A DNA stretch of 61,509 bases, the filler included, from an uncultured Methanosarcinales archaeon (GTDB lineage: Archaea > Nanobdellota > Nanobdellia > Woesearchaeales > CAZPJY01): NCBI GenBank assembly GCA_964587045.1. It is 5 parts of 4 records of this genome, joined end to end, with 100 filler letters (N's around TTAATTAATTAA, not from the genome) between each part and the next. Parts side by side here need not be neighbours in the genome. Positions count along the whole stretch, not along the records: positions 12,952 to 26,822 come from CAZPJY010000014.1; 4 more parts are not named here. One strand, given 5' to 3'. Position 1 is the first letter of the stretch, and each line of letters opens with the position of its first letter. A program made the translations under genes and the position numbers. Shown one piece after another: positions 19,445-26,822 of the stretch. The notes beneath the pieces are model-generated. The model worked only from the letters and a program-made list of their open reading frames with translations. It was not told where the DNA came from and searched no databases.

Positions 19445-19840
19445 ATGGCAGATGTATTATACCAGCTTATGGGTGTAGACCATGAGGATGATAGACGAGA
19501 GCTGTTTTCCGCTTTCAATGGGGATTTGGGTGATTTCGTTGCCAGACAGGTCAAGTTCCTCAAATTGCGCAAGGATGCACAGCTCGGTGGCCACTACCAC
19601 GACTACCGCGAGCTCTTCTACCTGCTCGAAGGGAGCGCATCGTTTCAAATAATTGATATCAATTCAAAAGAAGAGACGATAATTGAAATGGTTCCAAAAA
19701 GCAGGATACTTCTTCCGCCCTACATGGCCCATAGGATATCTGTTGAAGGGGGATCGATTCTGGTCGGCTGCACGGAAAAAGAGTATGTCTCGCCCCAAGT
19801 CAACGATTTCCCTTATGATTTCGATGCAAGAATTCGCTAG
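19445..19840 (+). CDS. cupin-domain protein (WxcM/FdtA-like)
   Basis: LGGHYH...ELFYLLEG...PPYMAH. Confidence 0.75.
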   Translation: MADVLYQLMGVDHEDDRRELFSAFNGDLGDFVARQVKFLKLRKDAQLGGHYHDYRELFYLLEGSASFQIIDINSKEETIIEMVPKSRILLPPYMAHRISVEGGSILVGCTEKEYVSPQVNDFPYDFDARIR

Positions 19841-20232
19841 TGTTTTTTCCTAAACCCTTTTTCATCTCCGTATTCCAAGAAATCCTTGTGGTGTCTGGGC
19901 TCGATGAACCCTTTATACTTTTGGTGCTTTATCGCGCAGAAGTACCTCTCTGTTCTCGCTGCAATCTCAGACATGTACGCGGCCAGCCCGTTAGCGTAAC
20001 CGCAGTAGGAGCAGTTCAGCTTGTCCAGGGGCCCCAGGTACCTGAGCTTGTGCCTGTCAATCCTGATGTATGCTGATCGTCTGACCATCGGGATCCCGCA
20101 CAGCCGAAATCCCACCTGGTGGTAGAGCTCGACAGAAGCATCCAACAGGAGGAGCGGGAAGAAGATGAGGTAGATGAAAGGAGACGCGAGGATGTGCCTG
20201 AGCATCCGGTTCCGGTGCTTCTTGTATTCCAT
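19837..20232 (-). CDS. conserved hypothetical membrane protein
   Basis: IDRHKLRYL...KLNCSYCGYANG...TERYFCAIKH. Confidence 0.7.
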   Translation of the reverse strand: MEYKKHRNRMLRHILASPFIYLIFFPLLLLDASVELYHQVGFRLCGIPMVRRSAYIRIDRHKLRYLGPLDKLNCSYCGYANGLAAYMSEIAARTERYFCAIKHQKYKGFIEPRHHKDFLEYGDEKGFRKKH

Positions 20233-20306
20233 CAGCCAGTGCCAGCGAACATTAAAATATAAAGCTTTTCAAAACGTATTAATATGACCCGTCCCCTCTT
20301 GCTTTA

Positions 20307-20735
20307 ATGCTGCATACCACCAAGCCTAATGATTTCTCCTCCAAGTTCGATGTCGTCAGCTGTTTCCTTGAGTCCGGCGGCGAGATACTCCTCCTCAAGC
20401 GCCTGGACCACAAGCCTGAGGGCGGTCTGTGGGGAGCGCCGGCAGGAAAGGTCGACCCTGGAGAGACTCTCAACGAGGCGATGTCGCGGGAGGTGTACCA
20501 GGAGACCGGGGTCAGGATTGATGATTTCGAATACCTGGGCAAGCTGTACGTGAGGTACCCCGCCTACGACTTCGTCTACCACACCTACAAGAGAAAGCTT
20601 GCTTCCAGGCCTGATATAAGGGTAAAGGGCGACGAGCATGACAGGTTCATATGGGTCTCCCCAAGTGGAGCCCTGCGCATGCCACTGGTCCTCGACATGG
20701 ACGGCTGCATCAGGAAGTATTACAGCCTCGGGTGA
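20307..20735 (+). CDS. NUDIX hydrolase
   Basis: PAGKVDPGETLNEAMSREVYQETG Nudix box. Confidence 0.9.
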   Translation: MLHTTKPNDFSSKFDVVSCFLESGGEILLLKRLDHKPEGGLWGAPAGKVDPGETLNEAMSREVYQETGVRIDDFEYLGKLYVRYPAYDFVYHTYKRKLASRPDIRVKGDEHDRFIWVSPSGALRMPLVLDMDGCIRKYYSLG

Positions 20736-20772
20736 CAAGATTTATTAAATCAGGAGTCACGAATCTGCTATA

Positions 20773-21420
20773 TTGGTAAAAACCCACCTCTCGTTCAAGG
20801 TCGCGCTCGCAGTGTTCCTGCTTGCAGCGCTCTCAATCGCCGGGGTCGGGATGTACATCGGAAGCTTATGGCACGTCAGTGACGCCCCCAACACGGTTTT
20901 CCTCACATTCGACGACGGCCCGAGCAACAACACCTTGGAGGTTCTTAGGATACTGGATGAAAATGATGCCAAGGCGACCTTCTTCGTACTGGGGGATAAC
21001 GTGCGCGAGCATGAGGATATCACGAAGCAGATAGTGCGCGAGGGCCACGCAATAGGTTCCCATTCCATGAGCCATTGCGTGCTTTGCGGCCATCCCGAGG
21101 CCAAGGAGTCAAAGGAACTGATAGAGTCGGTCACCAACACAACCGTGAAGTATTTCAGGCCTCCCAGAGGCTACATAACGCCCTCTGCGTACATCGATGC
21201 GAGAAGGGCCGAGCTGACTATTGTCATGTGGGACGTCTACCCGCGCGACTACGCCAAGGGTCCGGACTATGTCAGGTCGTACATCCTGGACAAGTCGACT
21301 TCGGGCAGCATAATAGTCTTGCATGACGGACCGGGCGACAGGTCTGGGATGCTGGGCGTGCTGCCAGATATCATCAAGGGGCTTCGTTCCAGGGGATTTG
21401 AGTTCTCAACCCTGGACTGA
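20773..21420 (+). CDS. polysaccharide deacetylase (NodB family), N-terminal anchor
   Basis: TFDDGP, HSMSH, FRPPRG, IVLHDG. Confidence 0.92.
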   Translation: MVKTHLSFKVALAVFLLAALSIAGVGMYIGSLWHVSDAPNTVFLTFDDGPSNNTLEVLRILDENDAKATFFVLGDNVREHEDITKQIVREGHAIGSHSMSHCVLCGHPEAKESKELIESVTNTTVKYFRPPRGYITPSAYIDARRAELTIVMWDVYPRDYAKGPDYVRSYILDKSTSGSIIVLHDGPGDRSGMLGVLPDIIKGLRSRGFEFSTLD

Positions 21421-22179
21421 CATCTTCTCCTTGGTCACTTCATAGTCCACTATTTGCAGGAAGTCTATCCTGTCCTTCGGCACGATTGAGTATATGCGTT
21501 CCAGGTCTTGTTGGTCATGGCCTATCAGCGTGAGGTAGAAGTTGCGTGCCGGAAGGTAATGCTGCAGTTCCTTCAAGGACTGTCCGAAGAGGTCGGAGCC
21601 GGTGTTGCGCCTGAAGTTCTGGGGGTTGGTCCCCTTCAGGCAGCCTGTCAGCAGGAAATGGTGCAGGCCCAGGAACTCCCACGGCCTCTTGTTGACGAAG
21701 TGCTCCTCGACCAAGATGACGTCTGAGAACAGCACGACTTCTCGGAGGTTGTGCCTATCTAGGGCTTGCCTCAGCTCCTTCCAGAACTCGCAGTAGATGG
21801 CAGGAGCCCCGCCCATGAAGTGGAAGACCTTCAGCTTGATGCCGAACTTGGGCTCGACCTCAGCTTTGAAGGAGATGAACCTCTCTACCAGCTCGTCAGC
21901 GCCCATGGTCAGGTCGGCCTTAAGGTTGTCGACGTAGCAGTAGGGGCACTTCAGAGGGCAGCCTGCAGCCTGGACTATGAAGTGGTTGTTGTAATCCTCC
22001 CATCTCCCGCCGAAGAGCTCTGCCATACGATAGGGCGACCTATCTCCCCTGTCATCGTGCGAGCCCCTGCCTTTGGCAACAGTGCAAATCCTCGCGACAT
22101 CATCGTGGTAGACGATACCGGATGATTTCTCTACATCGATCTGCTGCGTCTTGCCTATCTTGGCTATATCGACCTTCAC
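21406..22179 (-). CDS. radical SAM-like protein
   Basis: GCPLKCPYC (CxxxCxxC) and FMGGAP. Confidence 0.7.
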   Translation of the reverse strand: MKVDIAKIGKTQQIDVEKSSGIVYHDDVARICTVAKGRGSHDDRGDRSPYRMAELFGGRWEDYNNHFIVQAAGCPLKCPYCYVDNLKADLTMGADELVERFISFKAEVEPKFGIKLKVFHFMGGAPAIYCEFWKELRQALDRHNLREVVLFSDVILVEEHFVNKRPWEFLGLHHFLLTGCLKGTNPQNFRRNTGSDLFGQSLKELQHYLPARNFYLTLIGHDQQDLERIYSIVPKDRIDFLQIVDYEVTKEKMSVQG

Positions 22180-22619
22180 ATGGCTCCCCCGTGGTAGTCC
22201 AACCTGTAGATCTCATTGCCTTTGTAGAGGATCCTCTCAACCCCTGTGAACCTGGGGATACCACCATCTGTTTTATTGGTGTACTTGAGATTCCCTTTGG
22301 TTAACAGGCGTGGCCCTCTGAACGGGCTTTCCCTTGTAACAAGTCTCAATGCGTTCTTTAGGAAGCTGTAGACCTCTTTTGCAGGCATAGCGTCTGAGGT
22401 TATCTTCCCGAAATAGTTCATCGACCAGATTATCTTTCCGTCCTCCCAAACGGTTTCCTGGCCTGAGAACGGGTTGAACCCGTAATACTTATCTTGGTAC
22501 CTATACTTGCCCTCTTGGCATGTCAGCACCTTGCACCCGTCCGGGAGAGTTCTCTCCAGGCTTTGCTCGCTTGCGTATGTCGCGCGCTTGGCTCTGACCA
22601 GAAATTTGCTCAATCCCAT
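22176..22619 (-). CDS. DUF5680-like protein
   Basis: YQDKYYGFNPFSGQETV...WSMNYFG...PFRGP...YHGG pattern. Confidence 0.7.
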   Translation of the reverse strand: MGLSKFLVRAKRATYASEQSLERTLPDGCKVLTCQEGKYRYQDKYYGFNPFSGQETVWEDGKIIWSMNYFGKITSDAMPAKEVYSFLKNALRLVTRESPFRGPRLLTKGNLKYTNKTDGGIPRFTGVERILYKGNEIYRLDYHGGAM

Positions 22620-22675: not shown

Positions 22676-22703
22676 ATTGAGCATGATTCCTGTTATGTGT
22701 TTT
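22676..22703 (+). repeat. dif-like site 1 (degenerate left arm): ATTGAGCATGA TTCCTG TTATGTGTTTT
   Basis: Read directly; sits at the GC/AT boundary. Confidence 0.75.
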
Positions 22704-22827
22704 TTCTGAAAGAAAAAATGCTGAAGCGTAGGCACAGTATGACACAGAGAAAAAGTAGATCTTTTGATTAGAAAAATACTCCTTATGAATAGTAATGTTT
22801 ATATAACAAGTTCTAATTCCGATTTGA

Positions 22828-23382
22828 ATGGGAACACGAATGCTTACAAACCGAGAGTTAACTGATTTAATGGGTTTGAAATTAAATATAGAAATTCTTT
22901 CTGGTGACAACAAAGAGATGGTTGAAGGGTGTCTTGCTCCTGCAGAGAATGGGATTGAAGCATGTGTGTTTTATCATCATGGAAGTGAAACAAAATCAAC
23001 CCTTGCTCATGAAATAGTTGTCGCTCATTATCCAATTTACTCAAAAGAAAGATATATGGCTGTAAATAAAATATTGAAGAAGTTTGCAAAAATTGTAGAA
23101 GGAGCTAAGGAAAAAGGTGCCTATGAACCATTTGATTTTGATGCTTTAAATAAACTTCCCGCTGAAATATGTTATCCATCTCCTTCTAAAGGAGAGATTT
23201 GGCAACCTTCAATTAGATTATATAGGGGAACACCTGTGTGGGATGCAAATGGGCAGTTGAGAATGAATTTTGTTGGGACATCAACAACCAGCTATTTGTC
23301 CTTAGCTTATAAATCGCATAATAGGGGTGCAGAAGCACTAAATAATGCAGGTATAGCGACAACTACCTCTATACTTCAATAA
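22828..23382 (+). CDS. cassette A: hypothetical protein
   Basis: 184-aa ORF; TTTATATA at 22798-22805. Confidence 0.75.
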   Translation: MGTRMLTNRELTDLMGLKLNIEILSGDNKEMVEGCLAPAENGIEACVFYHHGSETKSTLAHEIVVAHYPIYSKERYMAVNKILKKFAKIVEGAKEKGAYEPFDFDALNKLPAEICYPSPSKGEIWQPSIRLYRGTPVWDANGQLRMNFVGTSTTSYLSLAYKSHNRGAEALNNAGIATTTSILQ

Positions 23383-23447
23383 CAACCACAGATCTTAGGA
23401 TTATTTTTTACCTATTAGTGTGATCTTATCACTTTTTCTGGAGTAAT

Positions 23448-23475
23448 ATTGCACATAATTCCTGTTATGTCTCCC
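23448..23475 (+). repeat. dif-like site 2: ATTGCACATAA TTCCTG TTATGTCTCCC
   Basis: Read directly. Confidence 0.85.
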
Positions 23476-23611
23476 GACGACTGAAAGGAGGAGAGCGCAG
23501 CGGGGCACAATCCGAAGGATTTTGGGTTCAGAATTCGGGTGTATTTAATATTAACTTCCAAGTAGTAAATTATTCGAAATGTTTATAAATATTAGATTAA
23601 TAACTACCAAT

Positions 23612-23980
23612 ATGAGAGAAGCAATTACCCAATTATTTCAACAAGTTGGAAAAGATTATCAAGATAGAGGAGTTGCTGAATTTGATTTACATCAAGGTCA
23701 CGATGTTCATGCATTTTATAGACTTTCAGGTTATCCATCTAAAGTAGTTCATGTTCAAGGTTATACGGGAATGAGTTCTGACAATGAAGCAAGAGTTTGG
23801 GCAAGAATGATGGATTATGACCTAATGATGAAAATAAGAGGGAGTGGAGGAGTTTCAGTAGGAAACGAACATGAAGCAACAACAGAACAATTTCCAAATT
23901 TTGAAAATGGAATAATGATTCCATATGATTCAAAAGTTCTTGAAGATAAATTGGCGGAAAACGTTCCAGAGTTGAAATAA
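23612..23980 (+). CDS. cassette B: hypothetical protein
   Basis: ORF from MREAITQ; TTTATAAA at 23582-23589. Confidence 0.75.
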   Translation: MREAITQLFQQVGKDYQDRGVAEFDLHQGHDVHAFYRLSGYPSKVVHVQGYTGMSSDNEARVWARMMDYDLMMKIRGSGGVSVGNEHEATTEQFPNFENGIMIPYDSKVLEDKLAENVPELK

Positions 23981-24017
23981 ACGCCCCGCTTCTTATAAGT
24001 GTTAAGTCTTTTTCTCA

Positions 24018-24045
24018 ATTGAAACTAATCCTTGTTATACGTTTT
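24018..24045 (+). repeat. dif-like site 3: ATTGAAACTAA TCCTTG TTATACGTTTT
   Basis: Read directly. Confidence 0.85.
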
Positions 24046-24107
24046 TTCTGCAAGAAAAAAATCACGGAGTGAAATGGAGCGACAGTATGACGCAGAGAGC
24101 TTTTCCG

Positions 24108-24605
24108 TCACTTGTTGAAAAAATTAACACATTCTGGAATTACTTTTAGAAATTTATCTGGACTATTTTTTAACTCATTAAGTAATTCTTCTTTTGAAAA
24201 CCACTTAATTTTTTCAACTTCCTCTTCTTGAATTGTAAACTCTTCGATTTTTTTATCGACTAAGGCAAAAAACCATTGAGTAAAATGTTTATGTTGTCCC
24301 TCGTGAAAATGATGAAACGACTTTTGAAATTCTTGATTCTTTAAACCAATCTCTTCTTCAGCTTCTTTAACAATATTGGATTCATAAGATTCTCCTTCAT
24401 CAATAGTTCCTGCAACCGCGGGACCCCATTGACCTGGATTATTCTTTTTATTGAATGATCTTTGTGCAAGGAGAATCTCACCTCTTGAATTTTGAATCCA
24501 TAAAGCTGAAACTCTATAAATATCTGATTGGTTTAAAGATCCTCTTTCTTTAGAACCTATAATTTCATCATTTTCATTAACAATAATTATTTTTGCCTTA
24601 GACAT
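24108..24605 (-). CDS. cassette C: NUDIX hydrolase (IDI/YfcD-like)
   Basis: LAQRSFNK..PGQW..AVAGTIDEGESY....KEAEEEIG. Confidence 0.9.
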   Translation of the reverse strand: MSKAKIIIVNENDEIIGSKERGSLNQSDIYRVSALWIQNSRGEILLAQRSFNKKNNPGQWGPAVAGTIDEGESYESNIVKEAEEEIGLKNQEFQKSFHHFHEGQHKHFTQWFFALVDKKIEEFTIQEEEVEKIKWFSKEELLNELKNSPDKFLKVIPECVNFFNK

Positions 24606-24664
24606 ATATTTTTACAATTCAAGAAGTAATATAAATTTATCGAAAGGAAAAGCTCTCGAGTAAT

Positions 24665-24692
24665 ATTGCGTATAACCGATGTTATGTCCTTT
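24665..24692 (+). repeat. dif-like site 4: ATTGCGTATAA CCGATG TTATGTCCTTT
   Basis: Read directly. Confidence 0.85.
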
Positions 24693-24794
24693 TCCCATAC
24701 GGAGTGTGGGAAAACTGCGTCCGCAGAGTCGGGAAAGGACAATTCCATCTAGCACGAAGTGCAATTAAGAAAACAATTAAAGGCAAAAACAAAA

Positions 24795-25481
24795 TTATTT
24801 ATACATGGAAACAACTTTTTCTAGAGCGGGAAGATGGTCGGGTCTAAAGTTAAGTTCTTTTCTTATATCTTTGCCAACTAAAGAACCAATAGGAACCCAT
24901 CTTTGAGATGCAATCTCATCTGAACCTCTTACATGACCTATTCTACAGACATAATATTCACACATCTCTGACTGTTTATACTTATCTTGTCCAGAATTAT
25001 CTATAACAGGAACTTTCATTATAAACTGTAGATTTTTTGGGTCAATACTTATGCCCTGTTCTTCTTGAAAACCTCTTAATACAGAGTCAAAATAACTTTC
25101 CCTAACATTTACATGTTCAGAAACACTTACATCACTCATTGAAGGAAATAAATCTTTTTTAGAAGATCTTGTTGGAACAAGTATTTCATCATTATCATTA
25201 ATAATGAATGCGTTTGCACCTCTATGATAAAATCCTTTTAACCTATCATCTCCATGACATTCTTTTCTATAGAAAACAAGGTCATTTCCTTCGACGTTAT
25301 AAGGTCTATCGTTTTGATCAAAAATTTGGAACCATTCGTATTTGCTACCTTCTACCTCCTGTTCTTTATCACCTAAGGCAGTATCATCCATAGAAGTAGC
25401 TAATACTAAGCCATTATCTTTTACAGAAAAATTAAGTGTTCTACCTGCAATATTTTCCAATTCTTTTTTTGTGATATTCAT
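24795..25481 (-). CDS. cassette D: NUDIX hydrolase (IDI-like) with N-terminal extension
   Basis: YHRGANAFI...TRSSKKDLFP...SEHV..RESY...RGFQEEQG. Confidence 0.85.
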   Translation of the reverse strand: MNITKKELENIAGRTLNFSVKDNGLVLATSMDDTALGDKEQEVEGSKYEWFQIFDQNDRPYNVEGNDLVFYRKECHGDDRLKGFYHRGANAFIINDNDEILVPTRSSKKDLFPSMSDVSVSEHVNVRESYFDSVLRGFQEEQGISIDPKNLQFIMKVPVIDNSGQDKYKQSEMCEYYVCRIGHVRGSDEIASQRWVPIGSLVGKDIRKELNFRPDHLPALEKVVSMYK

Positions 25482-25557
25482 TTATTGTTGTTACTATTTA
25501 GTAGTATATAAATATTTCGATTTTGTTTTTGCCTAACCTAGTTTTTGTCCTTTCCCG

Positions 25558-25585
25558 ATTGAAACTAATCACTGTTAGTTTCTTT
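25558..25585 (+). repeat. dif-like site 5: ATTGAAACTAA TCACTG TTAGTTTCTTT
   Basis: Read directly. Confidence 0.85.
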
Positions 25586-25740
25586 TACCCTACGAAGTGG
25601 GGTAAAATTGCGTCCGCAAAGTTGAGTTTGAGTTTTCCTTCCACGTTTTACATTCATTTTTATATCAAGGGTCGCCCTAATAAATAGTAACTAAATAGTA
25701 GTAAATAGTAAAAAAGTTTATAAACTATAGTATTTACACT

Positions 25741-26289
25741 ATGAATATGGCATTAAGTGAACACTTTTGGAATAAATTAGGAGGATATGTTAGAGCAGGA
25801 AATAGAGTTGCCGAGCTATACCATGGCGAAAAAGATGATATTCTTAGGGGATTAGCTGAAATTGTTTCAGATGAAGGAGTGGTATATGGTGTTGATCATC
25901 TAAATCCATTTGAAAGACATAATAATATGCGAGAATTGCAGAAATTATCAAATGTCAGATTATTGAAAGCATCAATTCCACCACTGCCAGCTGAAGTTTC
26001 TAATTTGGATGCTGTTTTAATCAGAGAATTTATTTGGACTTATCCTCTTCCTTATAATGGTTCTGAAAATCCACAAACATACGAAGCAATTGATACAGCT
26101 GTAAATGTTGGGGGACATTTTATTTTACATTTAAATCCTACAGAACAAGAGAATGAGAAACGAAAGCACCCAATGTATCAAGATACTATGAACCGGCAAC
26201 TTCCTCATTTTCAAAAAGTATATAATCGCGAGGATTTGATAGTCTATCAAAAAACTTCTTCTAGGACATTAAATAGGGCGACCCAATAA
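25741..26289 (+). CDS. cassette E: class I SAM-methyltransferase-like fold protein
   Basis: GNRVAELYHG...LAEIVSDEGVVYGVD...LDAVLI...VGGHFIL resembles a degenerate MTase. Confidence 0.6.
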   Translation: MNMALSEHFWNKLGGYVRAGNRVAELYHGEKDDILRGLAEIVSDEGVVYGVDHLNPFERHNNMRELQKLSNVRLLKASIPPLPAEVSNLDAVLIREFIWTYPLPYNGSENPQTYEAIDTAVNVGGHFILHLNPTEQENEKRKHPMYQDTMNRQLPHFQKVYNREDLIVYQKTSSRTLNRATQ

Positions 26290-26310
26290 ATTAGAGAAAA
26301 CTCAAACTCA

Positions 26311-26338
26311 ATTGAAACTAACCCTTGTTATGTGGGGA
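26311..26338 (+). repeat. dif-like site 6: ATTGAAACTAA CCCTTG TTATGTGGGGA
   Basis: Read directly. Confidence 0.85.
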
Positions 26339-26372
26339 GACTGCAAGTCGACCGACCGAAGGGACAGTTGAA

Positions 26373-26768
26373 CTAAGAAAATTTACTAGCATACTCAATC
26401 CAATTTTTATGATGTAAAGATAATTTATCCGCCACTTGCATTATTCTACCATAAATTGTTGTAGGTGTCTGTTTTCTTCTATGATTGAGAATACAATCTG
26501 AAATTTCTTCTTTAAAGGATTTAAATTCAGGATACTTTTGCAAAAATTTATCTAAATATTGAAGGCCTAGTTCATGATGTTTATCTTTATCATCTTTCCT
26601 TCCAATATCATGAATCCAACCTGAGATATCAAAAACAATTGGATTTAGATCAGTATTCTTAATCATATTATTACAACAATCTATTACACAAGCAGAATGA
26701 ATTTTTATTTTTTCATCATTCCATTCTTGTTCAAAAAATTCTTTTGCTTTTGAATATGCGTCACTCAT
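26373..26768 (-). CDS. cassette F: HD-domain phosphohydrolase
   Basis: H...WIHDIG...HH...H...ADKL. Confidence 0.88.
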   Translation of the reverse strand: MSDAYSKAKEFFEQEWNDEKIKIHSACVIDCCNNMIKNTDLNPIVFDISGWIHDIGRKDDKDKHHELGLQYLDKFLQKYPEFKSFKEEISDCILNHRRKQTPTTIYGRIMQVADKLSLHHKNWIEYASKFS

Positions 26769-26811
26769 AGAAATTAAATTGTATTTAAGGTATATAAATT
26801 TTCTTAGTTCA

Positions 26812-26822
26812 ATTGCACATAA
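26812..26822 (+). repeat. dif-like site 7, left arm only (ATTGCACATAA; contig ends here)
   Basis: Identical to the left arm of site 2; followed by Ns. Confidence 0.75.

Follow-up and report, generated by a model that had tools for sequence, protein, structure and literature searches.

What do long inverted repeats do around each member of a row of small genes? The question is raised by one end of contig C14 (CAZPJY010000014.1) from an uncultured archaeon labelled Methanosarcinales and placed by GTDB in the Woesearchaeales (assembly GCA_964587045.1), a contig that forms part of the stretch of DNA analyzed here (the window; 61,509 nucleotides, filler included). The last 4.1 kb of the contig are an AT-rich island (28-35% GC in a genome of 50% GC) in which seven co-oriented sites of Xer/dif geometry part six cargo open reading frames (ORFs), A to F. 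Each site consists of an 11-nt left arm (ATTG-N4-TAA), a 6-nt spacer, and a right arm beginning TTA, a dif-like 11-6-11 layout. By Pfam, two of the cargo ORFs are NUDIX proteins, one is an HD protein, and three have no match. The contig ends at 26822, exactly where a left arm finishes, so the array is cut there.

The array is probably part of an integron-like gene-capture platform in which a dedicated Xer-family tyrosine recombinase would act on cassettes folded single-stranded by their repeats. We infer the folding and the recombination from covariation and strand bias only; the repeats of the window are real and are one layer of a larger unit. That unit, the cassette, starts with the spacer, followed by a 7-nt inner right arm and the hairpin linker; AGT and the repeat come next, then the cargo, and the inverted repeat and an 11-nt left arm complete it. 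The 3' repeat runs into the ATT of the next left arm (Table 1).

Inverted Repeats of the Window

A preliminary description of this DNA had proposed that cassette-specific inverted repeats bracket each gene. The pairs it listed are present as given: 24095-24106/24646-24657 in C (12/12), 24729-24742/25545-25558 (14/14) and 24781-24795/25520-25534 (15/15) in D, 25622-25637/26296-26311 (16/16) and 25669-25679/26274-26284 (11/11) in E, and 26365-26385/26795-26815 in F (20/21, with one G.T). Cassettes D and E thus have an extra inner stem besides the outer one. The end-to-end alignment score was matched by 8 of 1000 shuffles of the 3' end in C and by none in D, E, and F; the corresponding counts for A and B were 221 and 371, so these two are not significant alone (the site of B was set one base off). 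Random AT-rich genes, which the preliminary description had named as a control that could refute its reading, are not equally bracketed. When the longest perfect match between the 150 nt upstream and the 150 nt downstream of a gene was taken, C, D, E, and F gave 12, 15, 16, and 18 bp (A 9, B 8), and only 2 of 129 AT-rich control genes from relatives reached at least 12 bp (1/129 at least 14 bp). In the genome itself, 1 of 18 other AT-rich genes reached 12 bp, and this one is a cassette of a second array.

The position of the repeat beside ATTG is fixed in A, C, D, E, and F, as had been stated. Cassette A, described earlier as imperfect, does not represent simple decay; it belongs to a conserved class of bulged stems. 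The degeneracy of B has another likely source, since its two ends match two different repeat families and the cassette is probably a chimera. The reported overlap of repeats with coding ends was partly upheld: the F arm holds the stop and the last three codons and the E inner arm supplies the R-A-T codons, but the stop of E is not covered. The inner arm of D touches the stop of D by 1 nt, and the other arm of F covers 4 of the 8 nt of a TATA-like box (26791-26798), which we take to be an archaeal promoter motif. The outer repeat contains a stop codon in 26 of 86 units, so coding-end overlap is common without being general. Whether homologues lack repeat-derived C-termini had a mixed answer at the level of protein homologues. 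The RATQ tail of E, encoded by the inner arm, is common to 1 of 13 homologues and reaches beyond most of them; F ends at the usual length of its family, and its KFS is common to the two closest of 32 homologues.

Which Ends Belong Together

Many genomes of this archaeon's order contain clustered sites, and the named records bearing the motif are mostly Woesearchaeota. The site pattern was tallied in 88 of 301 genomes, a figure that includes chance matches (the reversed pattern also matched in many), and only clustered sites were used. From 32 loci, with 217 site matches against 18 in reversed sequence, 114 site-to-site units were cut. An ungapped scan for stems between a unit's own ends fixed only the 3' ATT, did not impose AGT, and took as threshold the 99th percentile of 3171 non-cognate pairings. 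Stems in 59 of the 114 units exceeded it, and AGT opposite ATT, which makes a fixed G.T pair on the + strand, opens 56 of these 59. Beyond the first three positions the pairs, in stems selected for pairing, are 764 Watson-Crick (WC), 9 G.T, 0 A.C, and 2 other. In a later set of 91 units, chosen for a stem anchored at AGT, stem length is 12-20 bp; 10 of the 91, including A and C, are bulged, and the 81 plain stems begin with 74 distinct 13-mers. The claim that structure rather than sequence is conserved is thus sustained, since own ends pair far better than non-cognate ones.

The arms of the sites follow the same rule. The four variable arm bases are fully complementary between the right and left arms of one cassette in 51 of 114 units, and within a single site in 12 of 114 (shuffled mean 6.1, maximum 16). 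Pairing of the outer arms does not exceed that of arms from the same site (210/452 WC).

Five other loci contain cassette C at 79-95% protein identity with identical borders, from the spacer to the TAA of the left arm. Among the six C homologues, 130 of 498 columns of the coding sequence vary, as do 2 of the 24 columns of the 12-bp repeat; the latter two make up a single two-sided change of C-G to T-A in locus L077, and no unpaired change was seen. The covariation asked for by the preliminary description thus amounts to one compensatory change. Both arms changed together in L075, and in L074 pairing is kept through two G.T pairs. Thirty further loci hold C homologues of at most 76% identity, some of them partial or duplicated, and neither the sites nor the anchored repeat is present in any of these loci. 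The six C cassettes represent one repeat event and one arm event, which is supportive but thin. A decayed homologue of D in L165 shows the left arm to be D's own. Only one broken, distant match to cassette E was found, in 1 of 250 relatives, and cassettes A, B, and F have no homologous cassette among the loci examined.

The array on contig C3 contains a tandem duplicate that repeats the unit from spacer to left arm. Because of this duplicate, and because the spacers of internal and terminal sites have different profiles (see below), the exchange point is placed at the TAA of the left arm, and the cassette moves as a spacer-to-left-arm unit. A 34-bp unit, present twice on C3, holds nothing but an intact right arm, a left arm, and the six bases between them; it is the minimal empty form. 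In this second array (L004:3120-5360) the terminal site is followed by a host gene, not by a recombinase.

These borders bear on an alternative in which the sites are ordinary double-stranded Xer sites with a tolerated spacer mismatch, and panhandle and hairpins serve a different single-stranded step (protection, uptake, priming, or circle replication). The rejoined junction is indeed dif-like with a 7-bp inner palindrome, internal spacers have conserved ends (T first in 70/91, TG last in 88-90/91), and the enzyme is without the insertion of the integron integrase, IntI. Double-stranded binding, however, needs no cassette-by-cassette complementarity of differing arms, the stem begins exactly at the outer three bases of the arm, and spacers go along with the unit downstream of them, not with either side. 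We consider this alternative unlikely, though it is the strongest of those weighed here.

Reuse of Repeats with Unrelated Cargo

The repeats are not private to each cassette, contrary to the preliminary description: in 12 of 13 near-identical repeat pairs the cargo is without detectable homology. Since repeats are reused with unrelated genes, a fresh templating of the repeat for each cassette is unneeded and unsupported. Conversely, homologous cargo occurs in different wrappers, in opposite orientation in two of five pairs. Homologous cargo lying opposite relative to the sites was noted for L016 versus L215, L142 versus L057, and L018 versus L050. Contigs of four public runs match linkers and then diverge at or just past AGT, which fits shared linkers and varied repeats.

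A related explanation sees the repeats as by-products, copied from end to end at the birth of a cassette (for example by fold-back priming at AGT/ATT) and having no later role. The near absence of mismatches, the great diversity of stems within a narrow range of lengths, and the presence of cargo codons inside some repeats speak for it. Yet one repeat can frame cargo genes that are unrelated, some units are nearly empty (5 of 91 have no ORF of 56 aa), repeats stay intact while cargo diverges, and GC-rich inner ends recur. These features fit inherited, selected wrappers, and a by-product without function is improbable. Because the stems are nearly free of mismatches, a templated origin followed by selection, or templated repair, is possible.

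Among 97 cargo ORFs of the arrays, 47 have a Pfam match, four of them to ParE; no Rep or recombinase family was found among them by Pfam. A viral collection gave a single isolated site and no array. A promoter-like block after the repeat (window 23560-23600; L050, L019) is common to cassettes with unrelated cargo. Part of this block in L050 pairs with the 3' end, and wrappers may supply promoters.

Strand and Predicted Fold

The linkers suggest on which strand the folding would take place. In 57 linkers, 36 of 61 triloop hairpins have GNA loops on the + strand and 1 on the - strand, against a shuffled mean of 2.9. GNA triloops are described as highly stable in DNA (PMC3201870, PMC13037366). 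Cargo direction is mixed (40 minus, 29 plus), so the strand bias is not that of mRNA; the GNA loops favor folding of the + strand as DNA. A panhandle with the gene in the loop, as the preliminary description had envisaged, was obtained as the predicted fold of whole cassettes D, E, and F (z -5.5, -5.1, and -3.8), and their rejoined junctions are predicted to form four-way junctions with a one-arm hairpin.

The same evidence weighs against a role of repeats and hairpins in RNA as terminators, antisense shields, or a retron-like panhandle. Some arms do lie directly after stop codons, and a G.T could stand for G.U. But the folding strand is fixed though cargo faces either way, in C, D, and F the two arms flank a promoter so that the mRNA would lack one arm, and the loops are GNA triloops, with 2 GNRA and 0 UUCG tetraloops. 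No Rfam match came near a cut-off. This makes a function in RNA very improbable. A retron-like element was rejected, as the genome has no match to PF00078 (reverse transcriptase).

Recombinase and Terminal Site

At seven loci the array lies just upstream of a co-oriented Xer-family gene, intact or frameshifted. In a tree of 12 proteins the seven array-type proteins split from the five others at 100/100. A profile of the array type, with a cut read from the scores, matched about 59 times at high score, in 58 of 301 genomes; this tally includes genomes flagged unpublished.

The arrays end at a distinct terminal site 120-570 bp upstream of the recombinase gene. A model of this site trained on six loci found it upstream of 24 of 36 further array-type genes and of 0 of 20 lower-scoring (housekeeping-type) genes. 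Spacer position 1 is C in 26 of 30 terminal and 13 of 91 internal sites, and position 6 is G in 0/30 and 88/91, respectively. The terminal right arm is uninterrupted and its end tends to AAGT (A in 22, A in 28, G in 13, and T in 16 of 30), while no internal right arm ends in AGT (0/91). The AGT of the cassette is therefore read as the displaced end of the right arm, split off by the linker.

In the genome itself, an intact array-type gene with a terminal site stands at the start of contig C37, a broken copy of the recombinase is on C19, the same terminal site closes the C3 array, and a housekeeping-type gene is on C24. The end of C19 and the start of C37 have near-identical terminal sites with the same upstream cassette end. 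Another type of module without a gene occurs between cassettes (L103:85-165 and 800-880; also L074, L076, L077, L142, and L216). Its spacer, about 8 nt long, starts with C, its right arm is uninterrupted and ends AAGT, and it has two hairpins and a left arm of variant form; such a module may be a mobile platform site from which arrays are seeded at a distance from the recombinase. Palindromic dif-like sites lie 67-302 bp upstream of housekeeping-type xer genes in relatives (L224, L231, L232, L236, L239). Dif-like palindromes close to four or five housekeeping genes of relatives have similar final bases; a search of the genome itself did not find its own dif. On contig C28 (L005:580-700), two dif-like sites about 100 bp apart in opposite orientation lie in another AT-rich island.

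The best solved relative of the enzyme is IntI4. The enzyme is about 44 aa shorter than IntI4 between aligned blocks and is thus without the IntI insertion; TIGR02249 (IntI) matched in two stretches below its cut-off. NF040815 is the best NCBIfam match of the array-type enzymes, over the cut-off in 2 of 7. Some members of an integron-like subgroup without the insertion have been mentioned (10.1101/542381, PMC8138268).

A divergent classical integron, in which the entire stretch between genes is attC and crossover occurs at the GTT of AGTT, would account for the tandem array, for repeats that start GTTRRRY (25621, 26367), and for the kinship with IntI4. In such an integron, arms, spacer, and linker should belong to the upstream cassette, yet they move together with the downstream cassette; T is the fourth base in just 55 of 81, and no IntI match is over cut-off. 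We give this explanation the least credence of all.

Proposed Mechanism

In the mechanism proposed here, the + strand would become single-stranded and the 12-20 bp repeat would zip the two ends of the cassette together, with the linker hairpins looping out. The split right arm (7 nt, one base, and AGT) would then pair with the cassette's own left arm and rebuild one full 11-bp binding arm that is absent from the double-stranded array. The folded cassette would be the substrate for excision to a single-stranded circle, and insertion into the double-stranded terminal site would need one strand exchange, to be resolved by replication. The sequence of the repeat would be free, its role being to match each 5' end to its own 3' end by pairing.

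A more detailed version is speculative, and we hold it as a possibility that is rather less likely than its opposite. It posits an independent second invention of structure-guided capture, with repeats as address tags. A three-subunit reaction on a three-armed junction would fit because the fold supplies only one arm. Three-armed junctions resolve into duplex and hairpin, and a junction of zipped cassette and chromosome would yield a linear duplex and a hairpin-capped single-stranded circle; insertion would be the reverse. An IntI-related recombinase without the I2 insertion would act on the one-armed hairpin site, and empty reusable wrappers, some with a promoter, would catch new genes in the loop. 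A trimeric Cre complex is mentioned in PMC8860596, according to which a lone monomer on a hairpin half-site does not cleave.

Several observations count against the proposed platform. The recombinase is without the insertion that IntI needs for single-stranded substrates. The array of C14 is not physically linked to the recombinase on C37 in this assembly (comparison of contig ends gave no join of the two), the scored terminal site is missing at 12 of 36 array-type loci, and no gradient of decay runs away from the recombinase end (rho 0.03, p 0.77). The stems of 55 of 114 units are under the ungapped threshold (the bulged class, chimeras, units that are empty, and missed sites are counted here), and D combines a perfect repeat with an arm that is mismatched (1/4). 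The + strand has a small advantage in folding energy (50/59), and this advantage does not stand independently of the GNA count. The four public runs had no circular, excised, or empty-site junction, which carries no weight either way in contigs of low depth. Finally, arrays of related genomes are non-independent samples.

Comparison with Known Systems

The array works like an integron and borrows from Xer-exploiting integrative mobile elements (IMEX) of the CTX type, but it fails tested defining features of integrons, IMEX, and pdif modules. With integrons, archaeal ones and CALINs included, it has in common a recombinase gene, a single platform site of distinct type, a tandem row of small accessory genes among which are toxin-antitoxin pairs (the ParE matches), and sites conserved in structure over sequence. 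The analogous platform is the terminal site, of which the genome has its own copy on C37, unlinked to the array of the window. It differs from integrons in its dif-type 11-6-11 junctions, in a folded site that is split between the two ends of the cassette with the gene inside the stem, in cargo that faces both ways and often has its own promoter, and in a recombinase gene that is downstream and co-oriented. The cores of attC are RYYYAAC...GTTRRRY and enclose a fold downstream of each gene. Identity with attC was rejected, since the one core pair (25531-25621) brackets gene-side sequence and not borders; IntegronFinder was not run. The label "inside-out attC" in the preliminary description does not hold, because the junctions have no attC-type core pair and the sites are split Xer/dif-type sites. 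Archaeal integrons are described with standard attC and IntI in a paper whose main text has neither XerA nor Woesearchaeota (PMC9668308).

CTXphi attP is folded single-stranded (PMC7790495; 10.1101/2021.09.09.459576; PMC12715192). Points of likeness are the dif-like junctions, the accumulation in tandem, a site that is rebuilt when a single strand folds, and probably one exchange resolved by replication. The CTX fold, however, mimics a two-armed double-stranded dif and uses the host XerC at chromosomal dif, whereas the fold predicted here gives one arm. The arrays also adjoin a separate Xer paralogue, and no array sites were found upstream of the 20 housekeeping-type genes.

The pdif modules of Acinetobacter plasmids are likewise single-gene modules between Xer-type sites. 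All seven sites of the window and those of the other listed arrays are co-oriented, unlike pdif sites, which alternate in orientation. Hairpin linkers, paired ends, and a chromosomal location beside their own recombinase are further differences. From dimer resolution by archaeal XerA/dif, which has the same enzyme family and site geometry, the system is set apart by a second group of paralogues whose terminal sites are asymmetric and which has cassette arrays.

Features of the Array and Its Surroundings

Immediately left of the array, 19445-22619 holds a series of small accessory genes that have the GC content of the host and no scored sites (cupin-like, NUDIX, polysaccharide deacetylase, radical SAM-like, DUF5680); these are possibly old cassettes. 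The start of contig C22 (26923-27230) and the start of contig C7 are 88% alike over 269 bp in inverted orientation.

Table 1. Sites, repeat arms, and cargo of the C14 array, in window positions
Feature	Position	Strand	Remarks
Site 1	22676..22699	+	Left border of array; left arm degenerate, with TGA as its end, then 6-nt spacer and inner right arm of 7 nt
A linker hairpins	22700..22735	+	GAA triloop
A 5' arm	22736..22756	+	Bulged class; pairs with 23431-23450
Cargo A ORF	22828..23382	+	No Pfam or atlas match
A 3' arm	23431..23450	+	Final bases ATT
Site 2	23448..23471	+	Left arm of A, spacer and right arm of B
B orphan 5' arm	23525..23539	+	Repeat family has intact partner in L050 (twice) and L064
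Cargo B ORF	23579..23980	+	No Pfam or atlas match
B orphan 3' arm	24004..24020	+	Resembles another repeat family (putative chimera)
Site 3	24018..24041	+	
C linker hairpins	24042..24083	+	GCA, GGA triloops
C 5' arm	24084..24106	+	AGT, conserved bulge, 12-bp repeat
Cargo C	24108..24605	-	NUDIX hydrolase; cassette recurs in five other loci
C 3' arm	24646..24667	+	
Site 4	24665..24688	+	Right arm pairs with D's own left arm at 1/4 variable positions
D linker	24689..24726	+	Two abutting hairpins
D outer 5' arm	24727..24742	+	AGT and repeat; partner 25545-25560
D inner 5' arm	24781..24795	+	Partner 25520-25534, adjoining promoter
Cargo D	24795..25481	-	NUDIX domain; L165 has a decayed homologue of the cassette
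D 3' arms, inner and outer	25520..25560	+	
Site 5	25558..25581	+	
E linker	25582..25619	+	Two abutting hairpins
E outer 5' arm	25620..25637	+	Partner 26296-26313
E inner 5' arm	25669..25679	+	Partner 26274-26284 inside last codons
Cargo E	25741..26289	+	No Pfam match; weak resemblance to putative rRNA methylase (E 0.022)
E 3' arms, inner and outer	26274..26313	+	
Site 6	26311..26334	+	
F linker hairpins	26335..26365	+	
F 5' arm	26366..26385	+	Overlaps stop of cargo F
Cargo F	26373..26768	-	HD-domain protein
F 3' arm	26795..26814	+	Overlaps half of TATA-like box
Site 7	26812..26822	+	Left arm only, at end of C14

Implications

The literature covered does not describe this system; supplements and subscription papers lay outside that coverage, so the tables of Ghaly et al. 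could list such loci as attC clusters. The arrays are a real, widespread, and apparently undescribed variant of cassette capture, with a mechanism proposed from sequence. Screens based on attC would not be expected to detect the platform. It would account for the gain and exchange of accessory genes in DPANN archaea with small genomes, and a site that owes its specificity to a free 13-bp zipper could be put to use as a programmable tool for recombination. The platform would also be a testable case of single-stranded recombination without the IntI insertion, which bears on the origin of integrons from Xer ancestors, a scenario outlined in PMC7790495. Should the three-subunit reading prove true, which is tentative, the system would be widespread in DPANN archaea and would be a living model of the step from Xer to integron.

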